This document shows, one piece after another, positions 7,112 through 32,000 of a stretch of 32,000 nt of DNA. This stretch comes from Erysipelotrichaceae bacterium. Lineage in GTDB: Bacteria > Bacillota_I > Bacilli_A > Erysipelotrichales > Erysipelotrichaceae. The position numbers and the translations under genes were made by a program. The stretch covers positions 1,830,001-1,862,000 of the forward strand of contig OY760660.1 of assembly GCA_963663995.1 (NCBI GenBank), read 5' to 3'. The notes beneath the pieces are model-generated. The model did no database searches and was not told where the DNA came from. It saw only the letters and a program-made list of their open reading frames with translations. The first letter of the stretch is position 1. Each line of letters opens with the position of its first letter.

Positions 7112-7290
7112 AAAAAGCGCCTCAAAAAATTGATGCGCCTTCGTCTTTTTACCTGAAAGATTCTCTTACGATTGCTTCTTCGGTGGATTGACTCTCTCTA
7201 CGAAGTGTGTCCAAAACCGGTCCTTTTGCCTGAGCGTTAGCTGCGCGTATGCGCCTTCGGCGTCTTATCTTCATAAGATCTCTCCCGGTT
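7112..7290 (-). promoter_or_regulatory. Tandem glycine riboswitch (two aptamers plus terminator-type expression platform) controlling gcvT-H-PA-PB
   Basis: Read on the minus strand. Aptamer 1 is GGGAGAG...CGCCGAAGGCGCA...CTCAGGCAAAAGGACCGG (about 7288-7217). Aptamer 2 is AGAGAGAG...CACCGAAGAAGCAA...CTTTCAGGTAAAAAGACGAAGG (about 7200-7141). The aptamer-2 P1 strands CTTCGT/ACGAAG overlap the 5' arm of a weak hairpin AAGGCGC...GCGCUUU followed by a U-run just before the gcvT SD. This matches the known ON-switch logic. Confidence 0.9.
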
Positions 7291-7311
7291 TCTTCATCCT
7301 TATTAGTTCTT

Positions 7312-17590: not shown

Positions 17591-17628
17591 AAGATTACTT
17601 TAACATAGTGCTGTGTTATAATGGGCGC
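17591..17628. promoter_or_regulatory. 38-bp divergent intergenic region holding two overlapping back-to-back extended -10 promoters, each 6 nt from its ATG
   Basis: Minus strand: TGTTAAAGT (plus 17605-17597), AATCTT, then ATG (17590). Plus strand: TGTTATAAT (17614-17622), GGGCGC, then ATG (17629). Neither side has an SD. Confidence 0.45.
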
Positions 17629-18549
17629 ATGAATTTAAAACGAAGTTTTATACTCATGATGAGTATTATTTTATTAAGCGCTTGTGTTAAAGAAGAGGTC
17701 ATTCCTGTCGATACTCCTCAAGCGATTCAGTTTGATTTTACAAGCCATGAGTTTGTGATTGCAGGGATGCCAAGCTACGTCAAAGAGAAAGATGTATATC
17801 GAGTTAATACGGAAGAGGAAGTTGCTTTATTAGCTTATATTCACTCTATGGATGAAGTATTAGATTTTAATTATATTAGTGAAAATGAGCTTGATATTAA
17901 CCGAATATATGCCTTCTTAGAAACGCTACTAGCCTTTTCATTTAATCTAAGTTCATCGCAATTATCGTATACACAAAATGATGAAGTTGTGATGGTGCTT
18001 AATACTTTGCATGTTGAACCTGTTTTTTCAGAATGGTCATTAGTAGATAACTATGCTGAATCAATCGTTGAAGACGAAGACCTAGAAAATGAAACGACCT
18101 TAGAAAAGCTTGAATGGGCTCATGATTTGGTTGTATTAAATACAGCTTACGATGAATCAGTGCTACAACTTGATTTAACGAAACCAACGACTCATCTGTC
18201 ATTTGATTCACTTGGGGTCTTTTTAGAGAATACCGCAGTTTGTTCAGGTTATGCGCGGGCTTTTAATGCTTTAAGTGCTGCAATGAATATTCCAAGTATT
18301 ATAGTTTCATCAGAGACGATGATGCATGCATGGAATTTAGTCTACGATGGTGATGAATGGGTATTTATTGATACAACTTGGGATGATCCAATTCCTGATC
18401 GCCAAGGGCGAGTTTTATATACCTATTTCTTATTGGATGAAAAAGAATTTTTAAGAGATAAAAAACATGAATTTGATAAAAGTGCTCAAACTCGCTTAAG
18501 TGCTGATGAATACATTGCTTTTGCGAATTATGTCTTCTTCAATGAATAA
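17629..18549 (+). CDS. Lipoprotein with transglutaminase-like cysteine-protease core
   Basis: ORF 17608..18549 trimmed to ATG 17629. MNLKRSFILMMSIILLSACVKEE is a lipoprotein signal with lipobox LLSAC. The Cys-His-Asp core reads AVCSGYARAFNAL...MHAWNLVY...FIDTTWDD. Confidence 0.8.
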   Translation: MNLKRSFILMMSIILLSACVKEEVIPVDTPQAIQFDFTSHEFVIAGMPSYVKEKDVYRVNTEEEVALLAYIHSMDEVLDFNYISENELDINRIYAFLETLLAFSFNLSSSQLSYTQNDEVVMVLNTLHVEPVFSEWSLVDNYAESIVEDEDLENETTLEKLEWAHDLVVLNTAYDESVLQLDLTKPTTHLSFDSLGVFLENTAVCSGYARAFNALSAAMNIPSIIVSSETMMHAWNLVYDGDEWVFIDTTWDDPIPDRQGRVLYTYFLLDEKEFLRDKKHEFDKSAQTRLSADEYIAFANYVFFNE

Positions 18550-18578
18550 TGTAAGTTTATGAAAATAGATGAAAACGC

Positions 18579-18606
18579 TTGCATTTCAATATCAAAGGAC
18601 TAAAAT
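18579..18606 (+). promoter_or_regulatory. Sigma-A-type promoter of the ankyrin/EF-G2 leader
   Basis: TTGCAT (18579-18584), 16 nt, then TAAAAT (18601-18606). Confidence 0.55.
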
Positions 18607-18641
18607 AGAATTAACAAGATTTTAGAAAGAAGGTCCACATT

Positions 18642-18749
18642 ATGTTAGGGGTCAAAAAGACAATCGATCCACTTCATTTAGCGCTCCACGAGGATGCGCT
18701 CTTAACTTGTGGAATTCTGAAATCAAATCGTATTTTAAAGATGGGTTAA
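18642..18749 (+). CDS. Candidate 35-codon leader peptide (MLGVKKTIDPLHLALHEDALLTCGILKSNRILKMG)
   Basis: AGAAAGAAGGT (18624-18634) matches 10 of 11 positions of the complement of this organism's own 16S 3' tail (AGAAAGGAGGT). It sits 7 nt before ATG 18642. The last sense codons form the 5' arm of the downstream terminator and the TAA stop (18747-18749) lies in its loop. There is no homology evidence. Confidence 0.45.
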   Translation: MLGVKKTIDPLHLALHEDALLTCGILKSNRILKMG

Positions 18750-18768
18750 GTGTGTCCATCTTTTTTTT
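18737..18768 (+). terminator. Intrinsic terminator inside the leader, upstream of the ankyrin gene (attenuator)
   Basis: AAAGATGG (18737-18744) pairs with CCATCTTT (18756-18763) around an 11-nt loop. The T-run spans 18761-18768 (8 T). Confidence 0.75.
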
Positions 18769-18801
18769 ACGAATGTTTGAGAAATGAGGAGGAAAACACA
18801 A

Positions 18802-19470
18802 ATGGATCAAACAAATCAACTTTTCTGGGACGCTGCAGCCGCAGGTGACTTCCAGAAAGTCGTCGCAGCTATTAATCAAGGTGCAGACGTTAATATTCGC
18901 AATGGCGAAGCTAGAACAGCTTTAATGCGTAGTTCTAAACGTGGACATGAAAAGGTTGTTCGTTATCTATTAGATAAAGGCGCAGACGTTAATGCCCGTG
19001 ATAATAATGGGAAAACTGCACTGATGGGTGCAAGTAAAAAAGGACATTTATCAATCGTTAAAATGTTCTTAGATCTTGATGCTGATGTGAATGCCCAAGA
19101 TGTTAAAGGTCGTACAGCCTTAATGAGAGCTAGTTTACTAGGACATGATGAAGTTGTCGATTTACTTGTAAGTGCTGGCGCAAAAGTGAATCAAATTGAT
19201 GAAATGGGTCGTACAGCTTTAATGGAAGCATGTAATGCCTTTAGATTTGAAGTAATTAAACATTTAATAAACGCAGACGCAGATGTGAATGTACAAGATG
19301 CTAATGGAGTCACTGCACTAATGAGAGCTGCTTATACAGGCTACGCTCAAATGGTTGAGTATTTACTAGATCATAGTGCTAATAAAGAAGTGTTGGATGC
19401 AGATGGGAATAAAGCCATGCATTATGTAAGACAAGATTGTTTAACGGAACTTAAACCGTTACTGAAGTGA
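18802..19470 (+). CDS. Cytoplasmic ankyrin-repeat protein (six 33-aa repeats plus a C-terminal cap)
   Basis: ORF 18784..19470 trimmed to ATG 18802, which is preceded by GAGGAGGA. 222 aa with no signal peptide. The repeats read G(R/K)TALM.A...GH..VV..LL..GADVNA.D, with TALM replacing the canonical TPLH. The corresponding 99-nt periodicity is visible in the DNA (GCAGACGTTAAT / GCTGATGTGAAT). Confidence 0.9.
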   Translation: MDQTNQLFWDAAAAGDFQKVVAAINQGADVNIRNGEARTALMRSSKRGHEKVVRYLLDKGADVNARDNNGKTALMGASKKGHLSIVKMFLDLDADVNAQDVKGRTALMRASLLGHDEVVDLLVSAGAKVNQIDEMGRTALMEACNAFRFEVIKHLINADADVNVQDANGVTALMRAAYTGYAQMVEYLLDHSANKEVLDADGNKAMHYVRQDCLTELKPLLK

Positions 19471-19480
19471 GGAATGATAG

Positions 19481-21562
19481 ATGAAAGATTATGCAGCCCA
19501 AGATGTTAAAAATGTTGTCTTACTAGGTCACTCAGGAGCTGGTAAAACTAGCTTAGTTGAATCAATGTTGCACTTTACGAATGCCTCTGATCGCTTAGGT
19601 AAAAATGCAGATGGTTCATCCTTATTAGATTTTGATCCTGAAGAAGCCAAACGTGGAACTTCCGTTTTTACAAGTATTGCACCTGTTGAATGGAAAAATC
19701 ATAAAATTAATTTTATTGATACACCAGGCTATTTCGACTATGCTCAAGAAATGCTAGCTGGTTTATCAGTTGCGGATAACGCTTTGATTGTTGTTGATGG
19801 CCGTGATGGTGTGCAAACTGGAACGATTCGCTCTTTTAAAGCAGCTAATGAATTAAAATATCCAATTCTATTTTTTATTAATAAACTTGATGAAGAAAAT
19901 TCATCCTTTGAAAAAGTTTTAGAACAATTAAGAGAACAATTTGGTAAAAGTGTTATTCCCTTTGAAATGCCAATTATGGAAAATGGTGCGATTATTGGAT
20001 CCATCAATATTCTTAAAGATAAAGCTTGGTATTTAAGTGATCCTGAAACACCAAAAGATGTTCCTGAACATTTAAAGTCACATGTTGATGAATATGTGGA
20101 AATGATTAAAGAAGCCGTCGCAATGGAAAGCGAAGACTTAATGGAAAAATACTTTAGTGGTGAAGAATTTAGTGACACAGAACTTCTCCAAGGTGTACGT
20201 ATTGGGGTTAGAAATGGTGATATTCATCCTGTTTACTCAGGTAGCGCTACACATTCGGTAGGAATTCGTAGACTTATGGATTTAATTGGTGAATATTTCC
20301 CATCCTATGGAGAACTTGGAACGATTAAAGCGAAAAATTTAAAAGGTGAAGAAGTCGAACTTCATACAAATGAAGAAGAAATTTTCTCAGCTCAAATTTA
20401 TAAAACGATTGTTGATCCATTTGTTGGTCGTATATCGCTTTTAAAAGTTCTAAGTGGAACACTCAGTTCAGATACCCACGTTTATAATGCTAATAAAGAA
20501 GAAGCAGAAAAAATATCACAAGTCTTCATTATTAAGGGCAAACATCAAATTGCTGTAGGAAAACTCTTTACCGGCGATTTAGGTGCGATTGTTAAACTTC
20601 AACACTCTCATACAAATGACACTTTAGCGACTAAAGAAAATCCTGTCATATATGAAGCTATTGAATTCCCTGAAGGTAATTTAGCCATGAGTATTTGGCC
20701 AGTATCTAAAAATGATGAAGATAAAATGAGTGGAGCTCTTCAAAGAATTGAAGAAGAAGATCCATCATGTAAAGTGATTAAGAATCCGGAAACCAATGAA
20801 GAAGTTGTATATGGTTTAGGAGATCAACACTTAGATGTTATTGTTTCAAGACTTAAAAATAAATACAAAGTAGATGTTGAACTTAAGGAACCTCGTATTC
20901 CTTATCGTGAAACAATTCGCGGTACTGTTACAGTTGAAGGTAAACATAAGAAACAATCGGGTGGAGCAGGACAATTTGGTGATGTCTTTATTACCTTTGA
21001 ACCTTGTGATGATGAAGATATGGTCTTTGAAGAAAAAATCTTTGGTGGAGCAGTTCCTCGTCAATACTTCCCAGCTGTTGAAGCGGGTTTACGTGAAGCC
21101 ATGGTTAAAGGTGTATTAGCAGGTTACAAAGTAGTGGGTGTTAAATGTACACTTGTTGATGGGAAATATCACGATGTTGATTCAAAGGAAATTGCCTTCA
21201 AGATGGCAGCTAAGAAAGCTTATCGAGCAGGAATGCCACAGGCAAAACCTGTTCTACTTGAACCAATTGTAAAAGCAGAAGTCACAGTGCCTGAAGAATT
21301 TACAGGAACAGTTATTGGAGATTTTAATAAACGTCGCGGAATTATCTTAGGTATGGATTTTAATGAAGATGGTGAACAAATTGTTTCAGCAGAAGTACCT
21401 ATGAGTGAAATGATGCGTTATTCAACTGAATTAAGATCGTTCACACAGGGGGTTGGTATATATAAACAAAGCTTTGAAAGATATGACGTGGCACCACCTA
21501 ATATTGCAGATAGAGTTATTAAAGAATCAAATCATAAAGTCGACGAAGACGACGACGATTAA
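19481..21562 (+). CDS. EF-G2-type (EF-G-like) translational GTPase paralog
   Basis: 693 aa. P-loop GHSGAGKTS, switch II DTPGYFDY (Tyr where EF-G has the catalytic His), G4 NKLD. The domain IV tip is intact (KHKKQSGGAGQFGDV, DGKYHDVDS). Acidic tail KVDEDDDD. The SD TGAGGA overlaps the ankyrin stop, with a 10-nt gap. It is not in an rpsL-rpsG-fusA-tuf context. Confidence 0.85.
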   Translation: MKDYAAQDVKNVVLLGHSGAGKTSLVESMLHFTNASDRLGKNADGSSLLDFDPEEAKRGTSVFTSIAPVEWKNHKINFIDTPGYFDYAQEMLAGLSVADNALIVVDGRDGVQTGTIRSFKAANELKYPILFFINKLDEENSSFEKVLEQLREQFGKSVIPFEMPIMENGAIIGSINILKDKAWYLSDPETPKDVPEHLKSHVDEYVEMIKEAVAMESEDLMEKYFSGEEFSDTELLQGVRIGVRNGDIHPVYSGSATHSVGIRRLMDLIGEYFPSYGELGTIKAKNLKGEEVELHTNEEEIFSAQIYKTIVDPFVGRISLLKVLSGTLSSDTHVYNANKEEAEKISQVFIIKGKHQIAVGKLFTGDLGAIVKLQHSHTNDTLATKENPVIYEAIEFPEGNLAMSIWPVSKNDEDKMSGALQRIEEEDPSCKVIKNPETNEEVVYGLGDQHLDVIVSRLKNKYKVDVELKEPRIPYRETIRGTVTVEGKHKKQSGGAGQFGDVFITFEPCDDEDMVFEEKIFGGAVPRQYFPAVEAGLREAMVKGVLAGYKVVGVKCTLVDGKYHDVDSKEIAFKMAAKKAYRAGMPQAKPVLLEPIVKAEVTVPEEFTGTVIGDFNKRRGIILGMDFNEDGEQIVSAEVPMSEMMRYSTELRSFTQGVGIYKQSFERYDVAPPNIADRVIKESNHKVDEDDDD

Positions 21563-21571
21563 ACTTGAGAG

Positions 21572-21601
21572 AGCATGTATATCACATACATGCTTTTTTT
21601 T
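21572..21601 (+). terminator. Strong rho-independent terminator after the EF-G2 gene
   Basis: AGCATGTAT-ATCAC-ATACATGCT (9-bp stem) followed by a run of T. Confidence 0.9.
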
Positions 21602-21633
21602 GTATAATAAGTAGCATAGACAGTGAGAAAGTT

Positions 21634-22107
21634 ATGAATTTAAACAACGAGAAAACGTGTATAGATCTCTTGGAAAAAAGAGGTGTAAAAGTTGAAGATA
21701 TCGCAGACTGTGCGATGCATCTTCAAAAGAAATATCATCCAGAAATTACACTTGAAGAAAGCATTGATATGGTCCATACGGTTATTGCGAAAAGGGAAGT
21801 ACAACATGCTATCTTAACGGGTATTCAATTAGATATTATGGCTGATTCAAATCATGAAATGGTCGGTAATTTAAAAGAAATCCTAAAAAGTGATGAAGGA
21901 TTATATGGAATAGATGAAGTTTTGGCATATGGTATTTGTAATCTCTATGGATCAATCGCATTGACAAATTATGGCTACATTGATAAAGAAAAGCCTTGTA
22001 TTATTGGTGAGTTAAACGATGATAAAAATCAATGTAATTGTTTCTTAGATGATATTGTCGGTGCGATTGCAGCTGCTGTCGCATCAAAAATTGCGCATAA
22101 TAGTTAG
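21634..22107 (+). CDS. Phosphatidylglycerophosphatase A family protein (YutG-like)
   Basis: ORF 21565..22107 trimmed to ATG 21634. The upstream part of the ORF covers the terminator and a TGTATAAT promoter at 21601-21608. 157 aa. The C-terminal FLDDIVGAIAAAVASKIAH is typical of PgpA/YutG. Confidence 0.7.
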   Translation: MNLNNEKTCIDLLEKRGVKVEDIADCAMHLQKKYHPEITLEESIDMVHTVIAKREVQHAILTGIQLDIMADSNHEMVGNLKEILKSDEGLYGIDEVLAYGICNLYGSIALTNYGYIDKEKPCIIGELNDDKNQCNCFLDDIVGAIAAAVASKIAHNS

Positions 22108-22118
22108 GAGCTATAAAA

Positions 22119-22559
22119 ATGAAAAAACTAATCGCAAGTGTTATGGTTATCAGCCTATTATTAACAGGCTGTGCAGAAAAAGGGATAACAGATGTTAAAC
22201 CAAGTGCTATCTTAAATCAATTTGAACAAGAAGAAAGTTTTATTGTATATCTAGGTTTATCTTATTGTTCAGCGTGTAAAATATTTAGATCTGTCATTGA
22301 AACAGCTCTGCAAACAGAAGATTTTGATGTTCTTTATTTAGAATATGATAAATTGATGGAAAATGAATCAGATGCAGCAGACTTAGAAAAACTAATTCCA
22401 GATTTTCTTGAACAAAATGAAGCATTTAGTTATACTTTCCCGATTTTATATGTTGTTGATAAAGGGGTCATCATTGATCAATTTTCACTTCAACAAACAG
22501 ATACAGAAACTGAATTTATAGACCGTTTAAAAGCGGATGGAGTACTCGTGAGTGAGTAG
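22119..22559 (+). CDS. Thioredoxin-fold lipoprotein (CSAC motif)
   Basis: 146 aa. MKKLIASVMVISLLLTGCAEKG is a lipoprotein signal with lipobox LLTGC. FIVYLGLSYCSACKIF places a CxxC after beta-1. SD AGGAG overlaps the upstream stop. Confidence 0.7.
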   Translation: MKKLIASVMVISLLLTGCAEKGITDVKPSAILNQFEQEESFIVYLGLSYCSACKIFRSVIETALQTEDFDVLYLEYDKLMENESDAADLEKLIPDFLEQNEAFSYTFPILYVVDKGVIIDQFSLQQTDTETEFIDRLKADGVLVSE

Positions 22560-23343
22560 TGAAAAAGAAGTTTCGATTATCACTAGAAATAAATTAAAAG
22601 AACAATTTTTGGCGTGTGGACTTCACAAAGGCGATATCGTCGAAGTACACGCCTCTTTAAAATCTATTGGCTATATTGTTGGTGGCCCACAGGTTGTTTT
22701 GGATGCTTTAGTGGATACAATAGGAATTGAAGGAACGATAGTTATGGCTGCACAAGCCTATGACAATTCAGAACCAGCTTTCTTTGAACATCCTCCGATT
22801 CCTGTTGAAGATTATAAAGCTTTTAGAGAATCACGACCTGTCAATCGCAATAAACTAGAGAATATTAATCATATGGGTGAACTTGCGAAGGCTTTGATGG
22901 CTCGTCCGAATAGTTATATATCTGAACATCCACGTGATGCGTTTATATCAATGGGTAAATATGCTAAGTGGATTACTCAAAACCATCCTTTAAATGCAGA
23001 ATTAGGACCAGACTCTCCGCTTGGGAAAATGTTAGAACTAAAATCTAAGATATGTTTAATCGGTGTCGATTATGACAATGCAACAGGTATGCATTTAGGT
23101 GAACATCTCAGTGCGAAGCGTGAACACATTTTACAAGGTGCACGTATTCTAGTTCATGGTGAAAGCAAGTGGGTAAAGTTTAATGCGACTGATTATAACT
23201 CTGATGACTTTATTGAGCCAGGAAAAAGACTTGAGAAAAACGGTTTAGTAAGATTTGGACAAATTGGCCAAGCTAAGGTAAAGTTATTTACATTAGAAGC
23301 GGCAACACAAGTGTGTAAAGCTTACTTTGAGGAGGTCTTATGA
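22552..23343 (+). CDS. AAC(3)-family aminoglycoside N-acetyltransferase-like protein (YokD-like)
   Basis: 263 aa. GTG start overlapping the upstream gene by 8 nt. GDIVEVHASLKSIGYIVGGPQVVLDALVDTIGIEGTIVMAAQ is typical of the family. Confidence 0.75.
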   Translation: MSSEKEVSIITRNKLKEQFLACGLHKGDIVEVHASLKSIGYIVGGPQVVLDALVDTIGIEGTIVMAAQAYDNSEPAFFEHPPIPVEDYKAFRESRPVNRNKLENINHMGELAKALMARPNSYISEHPRDAFISMGKYAKWITQNHPLNAELGPDSPLGKMLELKSKICLIGVDYDNATGMHLGEHLSAKREHILQGARILVHGESKWVKFNATDYNSDDFIEPGKRLEKNGLVRFGQIGQAKVKLFTLEAATQVCKAYFEEVL

Positions 23344-24942: not shown

Positions 24943-24977
24943 AAAACTATCCTAGCATATTTGTGATAAAATAAATA

Positions 24978-25100
24978 CCGTGAACAGGGGTGCCCATTCG
25001 GGCTGAGATGTGTTAAACACAAAACCCTCATCACCTGATCTAGTTAAGACTAGCGTAGGGAGCTCACTGCTCTTTACCTTCTTACATTACGGGAGGTATT
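24978..25100 (+). promoter_or_regulatory. TPP (THI-box) riboswitch with SD-sequestering expression platform
   Basis: Reads GGGGTGCCCATTCGGGCTGAGA...AAACCC...ACCTGATCTAGTTAAGACTAGCGTAGGGA. P1 pairs 24980-24985 with 25062-25067. Downstream, TACCTTC (25075-25081) can pair with GGAGGTA (25092-25098), which contains the thiT SD. Confidence 0.92.
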
Positions 25101-26476: not shown

Positions 26477-27998
<1,522 letters not shown>

Positions 27999-28070
27999 AA
28001 GGAGAAAGAATACATTTTAAAAAACCTATACGTTAGTTTCCTATTTAGTTTTGAGAGTTCAGCTCTCAGT

Positions 28071-28084
28071 GGTTCTTTGAAAAC
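28071..28084 (+). promoter_or_regulatory. Spacer boxA-like motif ahead of 23S
   Basis: GGTTCTTTGAAAAC is followed directly by the 5' half of the 23S processing stem (28080-28099), which pairs with 31226-31245. Confidence 0.6.
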
Positions 28085-28272
28085 CGAATAACAGATATGA
28101 AAAGACATGATCTTTCTGAATAGTTGAAAAATTATTAGAAAAATTAAGATTTTTACATTACGAGAAACAAAAAACAATTTTTACAAATTGTTTTAGTTAA
28201 AAACAAAACAGTAATCAAAGCAATCAAAGTATATTTTATATACGTGAACACACATATAAAAAAATCAAACGT

Positions 28273-31168
<2,896 letters not shown>

Positions 31169-31264
31169 CCCATAACTAATAAAAAAACATCAATTATTTC
31201 AGAAAGAGAAATAGCCCTTTATAAACATATCTATTATTCGGTTTTGAGAGAATCAACTCTCAGA

Positions 31265-31378
31265 TCTGGTGACGATAGCGTAGTGGTCACACCTGTTCCC
31301 ATCCCGAACACAGAAGTTAAGCACTACAGCGGTGACAATAGCACGGCGTGCCCGTGTCAAGATAACACGTTGCCGGTT
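31265..31378 (+). rRNA. rrf: 5S ribosomal RNA
   Basis: TCTGGTGACGATAGCGTAGTGGTCACACCTGTTCCCATCCCGAACACAGAAGTTAAGC aligns with Firmicutes 5S. The 3' GTTGCCGG pairs with the 5' end. Confidence 0.93.

Positions 31379-31745: not shown

Positions 31746-32000
<255 letters not shown>

Follow-up and report, generated by a model that had tools for sequence, protein, structure and literature searches.

The attenuators of the pyrBI operon (and of pyrE) of Escherichia coli, studied by Turnbough and colleagues, reportedly sense the coupling of transcription to translation: a leader open reading frame (ORF) runs into a terminator, termination is the default, and a ribosome on that ORF blocks the hairpin without any RNA antiterminator, the leader peptide itself being irrelevant. 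We report here on a leader that appears to be of the same kind, found in a stretch of 32,000 nt from an Erysipelotrichaceae bacterium (GenBank assembly GCA_963663995.1, contig OY760660.1, positions 1,830,001 to 1,862,000 of the forward strand); “the window” below means this whole stretch, and coordinates are counted from its first letter. The leader fills the 252-nt gap between a gene for a transglutaminase-like lipoprotein (17608–18549) and an operon whose first gene, coding for an ankyrin-repeat protein, starts with the ATG at 18802 and whose second gene codes for a paralog of the elongation factor EF-G. Judging from sequence comparisons, it is very probable that ribosomes translating a short ORF in the gap (hereafter the uORF) gate the expression of this ankyrin/EF-G pair, and we lean, with some reserve, towards the view that the gap is a ribosome-dependent transcription attenuator in which the leader ribosome occludes the terminator. 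We provisionally file it in the known class of such attenuators and, within that class, in the subclass that does without an RNA antiterminator.

In its presumed working, the leader is most like the pyrBI/pyrE coupling attenuators and msrDL, to which we return below. With pyrBI it would share the arrangement just described, as well as a U-rich stretch before the terminator. The two have no sequence relationship, however, and their cargo differs, being a pair of translation factors here and pyrimidine biosynthesis genes in pyrBI; moreover, the ORF of our leader reaches its end at the hairpin or inside it, whereas that of pyrBI ends beyond it, and a helix enclosing the ribosome-binding site (RBS) is predicted in our leader. 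The host is also a Firmicute, in which coupling is not to be assumed.

Several other leaders place a uORF and an intrinsic terminator before a gene acting on the ribosome, as is the case here. In ermK, vmlR, bmrCD/bmrB, lmo0919, and hflXr, a terminator/antiterminator pair is at work, usually together with a drug-specific arrest peptide; in our leader, by contrast, neither antiterminator nor arrest peptide is conserved. The trp, his, leu, and thr attenuators likewise combine a leader peptide with a terminator, and the hairpin that lies 5′ of the terminator in our leader could, as in these, synchronise polymerase and ribosome. The resemblance stops there, however, as regulatory codon runs and a 2:3 antiterminator are both lacking and the cargo has nothing to do with the synthesis of amino acids.

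Closer to our case is msrDL, the leader of the ABC-F gene msrD, in which the weak Rho-independent terminator (−7.9 kcal/mol) is directly blocked by a ribosome that has reached the end of the ORF; pausing of the polymerase is called upon there, which spares the need for tight coupling, and the cargo feeds back on its own leader (10.1101/2021.11.29.470318). The likeness lies in the weakness of the terminator, for which we compute −7.5 kcal/mol in the window, and in the translation-factor cargo; the difference lies in the ORF, which has 6 codons, a conserved drug-sensing MYLIFM sequence, and a preference for UAA in msrDL, as against 23–37 codons, variable peptides, and all three stop codons here. 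As for tet(M), its original attenuation model is said to be that of Su et al. in 1992. In the Ptet/orf12 leader of Tn916, faster leader translation is modelled as giving antitermination, and the role of the leader peptide is disputed, no toeprint having been obtained and mutation of the start codon having had no effect (10.1101/2021.03.24.436905). Our leader resembles this one in its short ORF overlapping terminator structures and in having an EF-G-family GTPase downstream. It has, however, no similarity to plasmid-borne leaders (blastn against 72,556 plasmids), and its cargo is no ribosomal protection protein (306 bits with the tet_protect model, for a cutoff of 775). With another cargo, no conserved sensor peptide, no plasmid-leader similarity, and no Rfam match, the leader stands outside the pyrBI, msrDL, and tet(M) families.

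A leader module that travels with the ankyrin/EF-G pair

Species-representative genomes were scanned with the EF-G paralog, which gave 80 loci (L001–L080); the 400 nt located 5′ of the ankyrin start were extracted, and uORFs and terminators were tabulated for the 40 loci with enough sequence. These loci share kinship, and for all cross-locus statistics the effective sample amounts to some 8–10 lineages with mutually unalignable uORFs. In each of the 40 species-level Erysipelotrichales genomes, the same parts follow one another in the same order, namely, a promoter, a Shine–Dalgarno (SD) sequence with its ATG, a uORF of 23–37 codons (median 30), a terminator, and the RBS of the ankyrin gene. 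A scan of metagenomes with the ankyrin protein also returned 80 loci, nine of which were true relatives, the remainder being generic ankyrin proteins; the order of the module is identical in 9/9 close metagenome contigs, which add three further lineages. The flanking genes differ between carriers, so that it is the ankyrin/EF-G pair that the module accompanies. For a negative control, we turned the same detection pipeline on the 36 Clostridia orthologues of the EF-G paralog that have no ankyrin gene, and in none of them did it find an SD-preceded uORF with a terminator. A dedicated leader of the pair, made of a uORF and an intrinsic terminator, had been proposed in an earlier sequence-only reading of the window; that proposal is supported by 49 carriers out of 49, with changing flanks.

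The same survey bears on the plainest alternative, which takes the hairpin for the ordinary terminator of the upstream transglutaminase-like gene and the uORF for a product of chance. There is indeed no other terminator between 18549 and 18737, and an ORF for which only an ATG is required has p = 0.13 in the window alone. The module, however, has a promoter of its own, follows the ankyrin/EF-G pair when the upstream gene is a different one, and is found in 49/49 carriers while being absent in 36/36 non-carriers, and we hold this explanation to be extremely improbable.

The promoter predicted in the window is of the sigma-A type (18579–18606, on the plus strand like all the leader features and both operon genes described below), with TTGCAT at 18579–18584, a 16-nt spacer, and TAAAAT at 18601–18606. 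It agrees with the consensus at 8 of 12 positions, which is under the threshold of the promoter scan, and it is thus unlisted there. We consider it credible because both its position and its sequence are conserved in relatives: a TTGnnn-16/17/18-TAnnnT pair is found 23–55 nt 5′ of the uORF start in all 38 relatives with enough upstream sequence, mostly in the form TTGCA(A/T)-16-TA(C/A)AAT. We infer a transcription start near 18613. Directly 5′ of the −35 hexamer, several clades have a motif of the form ATGAAAnCGC/CAC, represented in the window by ATGAAAACGC (18569–18578), which occurs a single time in the 32 kb and may serve as a regulator site or as an UP-like element. On the other side of the terminator, the scan of the window gave no promoter-like site on the plus strand, and the spacer between terminator and ankyrin RBS is short (18 nt in the window, 10–40 nt in 38/40 relatives, about 100 nt in L037 and L038), leaving no room for a second promoter before that RBS in nearly all loci.

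The uORF of the window has 35 codons (MLGVKKTIDPLHLALHEDALLTCGILKSNRILKMG, 18642–18749), and its TAA (18747–18749) falls inside the terminator loop. Its SD, AGAAAGAAGGT (18624–18634), ends 7 nt before the ATG; the match of 10 out of 11 positions first noticed by eye is confirmed when it is compared with AGAAAGGAGGT, the complement of the 16S tail ...GGAUCACCUCCUUUCUA (27980–27999), the tail used being the organism's own, which ends in ...GAUCACCUCCUUUCUA. The computed SD:16S hybrid reaches −11.8 kcal/mol, as compared with −11.5 kcal/mol for the ankyrin gene, and only 1.7% of random ATGs attain −11.8. For the family, the median is −12.8 kcal/mol, against −12.2 for the ankyrin genes and −3.4 for random ATGs, and in 35 of the 40 loci the SD of the uORF beats that of 90% of random ATGs. 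In the window alone, the uORF is only modestly beyond chance: dinucleotide shuffles contain an SD-preceded ATG ORF of at least this length ending near the terminator in 1.05% of cases, and an equally long one in 13% of cases if an ATG alone is required. For the 37 leaders with a canonical SD, shuffling gives p = 0.006–0.06 for the ORF of each leader, across clades whose uORFs cannot be aligned with one another.

The position of the stop codon is another matter. The sequence-only reading had drawn attention to a stop sitting inside the terminator loop; in the relatives, the uORF frame held up (open in 49/49, with 23–37 codons), whereas this exact geometry did not, since 21 of the 40 loci have the stop before the stem, 7 have it within the 5′ arm, and 12 have it in the loop. 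A stop in the loop is uninformative by itself because the flanks are A/U-rich and off-frame stops fall there too, the first stop of the two other frames being within −12 to +16 nt of the stem foot in 66% of cases. A −1 frameshift at the in-frame U UUA AAG heptamer found at the foot of the hairpin (18734–18740) was also considered and rejected, as the frame relative to the heptamer differs in relatives; the heptamer is probably incidental.

The predicted intrinsic terminator, or attenuator (18737–18768), which an independent terminator scan also reports, consists of a 9-bp stem (18737–18745/18755–18763) in which AAAGATGG(G) pairs with (T)CCATCTTT, a 9-nt loop, and a U8 tract (18761–18768). All relatives have a homologous hairpin followed by a U-tract, with free energies ranging from −7.5 to −20 kcal/mol, and compensatory changes are seen in 5 of the 16 pairs of the stem in clade A. 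In thermodynamic folding of the free leader, the probability of the terminator is at least 0.8 in all 31 leaders with a correctly delimited hairpin; in this model, the default state is termination. The stem adjoins a U-run (18733–18736) that is a candidate pause element for RNA polymerase, and a run of at least four T within 20 nt 5′ of the stem occurs in 30/40 relatives, where 4.7 would be expected.

Between the terminator and the ankyrin RBS lies a GUUUGA motif (18775–18780), which recurs as GTTTGA(A) in clade B, with TTTGAT(T)C at the equivalent place in clade A; pairing of the window's GUUUGA with UCAAAU (18723–18728) is possible and would bracket the terminator in read-through RNA. The SD of the ankyrin gene, AGGAGG (18787–18792), is perfect in 39/40 relatives and mostly unpaired in the prediction.

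Among the orthologues without an ankyrin gene, that of Candidatus Caccousia avistercoris (Oscillospiraceae, L065) has a GC-rich terminator-like hairpin about 95–67 nt 5′ of the EF-G paralog, which an ORF with an SD in front overlaps and apparently crosses, and may represent an independent case of the same logic. Two groups of Clostridia (L058, L060, L069, L072, and L074 for the first; L063, L067, L073, L076, and L079 for the second) each have, before the EF-G paralog, their own conserved and apparently structured 5′ untranslated region, unrelated to the Erysipelotrichales leader.

Evolution of the leader ORF

In seven pairs of relatives, non-synonymous and synonymous codon differences stand at 36:8 in the uORF and 70:323 in the ankyrin gene (Fisher p = 1.5e-17); by this measure, the uORF peptide evolves neutrally, without purifying selection. 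Its frame is nevertheless open from the SD and ATG to the terminator in every carrier, as compared with an average of 2.1 stops over the same stretch in the other two frames, and all gaps that the clade A alignment has in its 5′ half are multiples of three in length. Between clades, the peptides cannot be aligned, their C-termini differ, and the frame shifts relative to the conserved nucleotides of the terminator. Stop codons are mixed (21 TAA, 13 TGA, and 6 TAG). No arrest or sensor motif is conserved in the leader peptides of the 40 loci, nor do these contain regulatory codon runs, and their composition is unremarkable save for 13% Val. Taken together, this looks like the signature of a regulatory ORF, for which translation matters and nucleotides are constrained, but not the product.

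One could still imagine that the uORF encodes a functional micro-protein co-expressed with the operon, in which case the hairpin would be a leaky terminator or an RNA-stability element. An ORF with good initiation signals is indeed conserved, and the peptides are hydrophobic and rich in Val, Leu, and Phe. This idea is contradicted by the 36:8 substitution pattern, as well as by peptides that cannot be aligned between clades and by a frame that changes with respect to the terminator nucleotides, and we judge it very improbable.

RNA folding upstream of the terminator

The minimum free energy (MFE) fold of the leader in the window has a z-score of −4.6 relative to shuffled sequences, and that of the domain 5′ of the terminator alone a z-score of −3.25. 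In this predicted fold, the 5′ strand of the closing helix (18618–18639) is made of GAUUUUAGAA (18618–18627) and UCCACA (18634–18639), which flank the SD core; the 3′ strand of the closing helices (18701–18724) is made of CUUAAC (18701–18706), UGUGGA (18708–18713), and UUCUGAAAUC (18715–18724), pairing, respectively, with GUUAGG (18644–18649, just past the start codon), UCCACA, and GAUUUUAGAA. An internal hairpin, AGCGCUCC-ACGA-GGAUGCGCU (18680–18700), forms inside the uORF, and most relatives have a hairpin at the equivalent place, with another sequence and another loop. Mimicry of the sarcin–ricin loop or of the GTPase centre of the ribosome by this hairpin was considered and rejected, since the loops are not conserved.

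The elements that the sequence-only reading had listed (promoter, SD, uORF, hairpin, and short repeats) are all found where it had placed them, and its proposed pairings had mixed fortunes. The AGCGC/GCGCU hairpin at 18680–18700 is present and forms in the MFE fold. The three UCCAC copies (18634, 18668, and 18685) offered as partners of a single GUGGA (18709) do exist, but only the first pairs with it in that fold. The suggested pairing of CUUAAC (18701) with the GUUAAG of the terminator loop was not recovered, as the MFE fold pairs CUUAAC with GUUAGG instead; the suggested CUUAAC/GUUAAG pairing is broken in the nearest relative, L001.

Most leaders are predicted to fold in a comparable manner, into a domain closed by a helix involving the RBS region, followed by an internal hairpin. 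The closing helix differs by lineage (GAGCG:CGCUC, GAGUG:CACUU, AGGGG:UCCCU, or GAGGUGUUCA:UGAAUGCUUC, and GGUCCAC:GUGGAAU in the window), and inspection reveals compensatory changes in it, one U:A to A:U with respect to L001 and a C:G to U:A with respect to the L002 clade. Long-range pairs of the RBS region number 10.7 on average, as opposed to 7.0 in shuffled sequences; they exceed their own control in 32/40 leaders, with p ≤ 0.05 in 9/40. RNAalifold, run on MAFFT alignments of two clades, recovered the terminator alone; upstream of it, the register of the helices varies from lineage to lineage, which makes covariation by alignment column unscorable, and per-sequence statistics were used instead. 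The test of an SD:anti-SD duplex is weak (median z of −0.86, p < 0.05 in 6/40 leaders), and the enclosure of the RBS is therefore treated here as a tendency and not as a finding.

Such folds invite another interpretation, in which the leader is mainly a structured RNA and something acting in trans senses it, be it a protein (for instance, a ribosomal protein or either product of the operon, the ankyrin protein and the EF-G paralog), a small ligand, or temperature; the factor would open or close the RBS-enclosing helix or stabilise the terminator, and the uORF would be an accessory or a read-out. The two z-scores, the long-range pairs of the RBS region, and the compensatory changes in the closing helix are all in its favour, as is the observation that, in close pairs of relatives, leader nucleotides are more conserved than neighbouring synonymous sites. 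On the other hand, the clades have no sequence block or loop in common beyond the promoter, the SD, and the terminator, and their helices change register. The scan of 18550–18801 against Rfam, a check suggested along with the sequence-only reading, gave no match at gathering thresholds, and neither did that of the leaders of 14 relatives; with permissive settings, the best E-value was at least 2.6, as for the L20 leader with 13.9 bits where 58.7 would be needed. A sensed structure would also leave unexplained the universal presence of a strong SD, an ATG, and a frame open to the terminator. Everything considered, we find this interpretation unlikely.

Folding was also repeated with a ribosome footprint of 27 nt masked at each codon, and the probability of the terminator was computed for the 31 scorable leaders. 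This bears on the classical stalling attenuator of the erm, vmlR, bmrCD, and hflXr type, in which a ribosome arrested by an antibiotic or at a starved codon exposes an antiterminator segment, and hence on the suggestion of the sequence-only reading that a ribosome stalled early in the uORF would free alternative pairings. In the window, the outcome is striking, as a footprint at codons 21–28 brings the terminator probability from 0.95 down to about 0. Furthermore, the purine-rich RBS region AAAGAAGG is a near copy of the terminator 5′ arm AAAGAUGG and can pair with the 3′ arm, of which the RBS region is the best upstream partner in 21/40 leaders; the cargo is a translation factor, moreover, as it is for ABC-F proteins, HflXr, and Tet(M). 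The masking effect is gone, however, in L001, whose terminator stays at 0.99 when upstream codons are masked, and 20 of the 31 leaders keep it at 0.8 or above until the footprint touches the stem; where dips do occur, they are at codons that do not correspond between leaders. The upstream partners of either arm are no better than in shuffled sequences (median z of 0.10 for the 5′ arm, with inconsistent positions, and of −0.44 for the 3′ arm), and an arrest motif, a conserved C-terminus, or a codon run is missing from peptides that evolve neutrally. Neither masking nor duplex tests thus lend conserved support to the stalling scheme, which seems to us rather unlikely; the sequence-only reading had seen no convincing antiterminator by eye, and no RNA antiterminator is conserved in these folding and duplex analyses.

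Proposed occlusion by the leader ribosome, and the translation-factor cargo

On the view that the leader ribosome occludes the terminator, transcription would begin at the conserved promoter, and the nascent leader, if unaided, would fold into the closed 5′ domain and the weak terminator, where most transcripts would end. A ribosome loading co-transcriptionally and trailing the polymerase to the last codons would cover the 5′ arm of the terminator; with the hairpin blocked, the polymerase would proceed into the ankyrin and EF-G genes. We infer from sequence that termination and uORF translation occur and that occlusion is the switch. As the ribosome itself would be the antiterminator, no alternative RNA hairpin would be needed, and read-through would be a measure of leader translation, of its promptness and of its speed as compared with transcription. 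The RBS-enclosing helix would confine ribosome loading to a short co-transcriptional window, and the U-run before the stem would slow the polymerase. A collided ribosome comes hardly closer than about 30 nt to the active site of the polymerase; occlusion would therefore take place while the ribosome is on the last 4–8 codons, and the ORF would need only to reach that far. Candidate conditions for raising read-through are faster or more frequent translation of the leader, a polymerase slowed by shortage of nucleoside triphosphates, inhibitors, and a ribosome lingering on the last codons because of defective translocation, termination, or recycling.

The geometry of the relatives is consistent with occlusion. 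The stop codon of the uORF is located between −10 and +16 nt from the stem foot in 39/40 loci. Once this stop is in the A site, the ribosome would shield the 5′ arm by half or more in 35/40 loci and completely in 30/40.

Several points weigh against this view. In the remaining 5/40 loci, more than half of the 5′ arm would stay uncovered by a ribosome terminating at the stop; the annotation of L034 is ambiguous. The position of the stop is in itself weak evidence, the same interval being shared by 66% of off-frame stops. Both the terminator and the start site are predicted, as is the translation of the uORF. In Bacillus subtilis, RNA polymerase moves ahead faster than ribosomes follow, and occlusion would therefore need a pause; the role of the U-run as pause element is a conjecture, and the strict NusG pause motif TTNTTT is not enriched in the 40 relatives (10 occurrences for 7.6 expected). 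The SD of the uORF has a mean probability of being unpaired of 0.34, as opposed to 0.62 for that of the ankyrin gene, which works against prompt ribosome loading; the window is an exception, with an SD core in an open internal loop (0.92), and the closing helix is itself supported by no more than a tendency. Lastly, in the five closest pairs of relatives, 12 of 168 codons differ in the uORF against 204 of 1111 in the ankyrin gene (p = 1.5e-4), and this paucity of changes points to a constraint at the RNA level that pure occlusion would leave unexplained.

As to the genes that the leader would control, the collection of papers searched gave no relevant work on the ankyrin/EF-G pair or on a leader before an EF-G gene, and an exact database look-up of the ankyrin protein of the window returned no record. 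This protein (18802–19470, 222 aa; Pfam Ank_2, 1.6e-44) is encoded by the first gene after the leader, and the EF-G paralog (19481–21562, 693 aa) starts 10 nt after it. Pfam recognises the five EF-G domains in the paralog, and the NCBIfam model NF009381 scores 870 bits, above its cutoff, with the EF-G equivalog TIGR00484 below cutoff; the cargo was thus rightly read at first sight as a translation-GTPase paralog. Its closest solved structures are canonical EF-Gs, and it is 93% identical to the paralog of the metagenome-assembled genome OY781039.1. The G3 motif, near residue 80, reads DTPGY in place of DTPGH in the window, and a Tyr, Phe, or Leu replaces the catalytic His in every orthologue in which the motif was found (66/80 loci), including Clostridia without the ankyrin gene; the catalytic His is therefore missing family-wide. 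To our knowledge, this histidine activates GTP hydrolysis in all translational GTPases, and the family is probably GTPase-deficient or slow. This is reminiscent of Bacteroides, which needs a GTPase-deficient EF-G2 in the gut. The ankyrin gene is located directly 5′ of the EF-G paralog, some 10–20 nt away, in all Erysipelotrichales hits (L001–L043 and L049) and in no Clostridia hit, which suggests that the two proteins are partners.

A more elaborate possibility, which we put forward as tentative and rather improbable, is that the leader senses, in a homeostatic way, how well ribosomes perform and sets the level of the His-less EF-G and of its ankyrin partner, the EF-G paralog feeding back on the leader ribosome. 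Read-through would then be set by the dwell time of the ribosome on the last codons or on the stop (translocation, termination, and EF-G-dependent recycling) against a paused polymerase, and the paralog, which the ankyrin protein may hold or target, would act on the leader ribosome as MsrD does on msrDL. If so, the pair would be a regulated back-up or rescue system for translocation or recycling in Erysipelotrichales, and the leader a natural reporter of the activity of the EF-G paralog.

The ankyrin/EF-G pair has been kept throughout an order whose bacteria are mostly gut-associated, with a leader that appears constant only in being translated and in meeting a terminator, which would tie the level of the factor to the state of translation. 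The leader would provide an experimental handle on the stresses that call up the paralog, be they inhibitors, starvation, or depletion of nucleoside triphosphates. Attenuators whose antiterminator is the ribosome and not an RNA hairpin are few, and the leader would enlarge their number by a natural family with many members, in a Firmicute lineage at that, where the coupling of transcription to translation is not a given.

Downstream of the EF-G paralog, and without any gap, the window has a PgpA-like gene and a gene similar to AAC(3)-type aminoglycoside N-acetyltransferases (21565–23343), which may be on the same transcript; the same two genes are found 3′ of the paralog, at a variable distance, in L001–L004, L009, L012, L017, L019–L021, L025, L039, L040, and L042. 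Elsewhere in the window, two riboswitches score above the Rfam gathering score, one for thiamine pyrophosphate on the plus strand (24976–25078, 71 bits) and one for glycine on the minus strand (7208–7297, 65 bits). A complete 16S-23S-5S operon occupies 26478–31378, and a second 16S gene starts about 520 nt later (31899–32000), which places rRNA operons in tandem.

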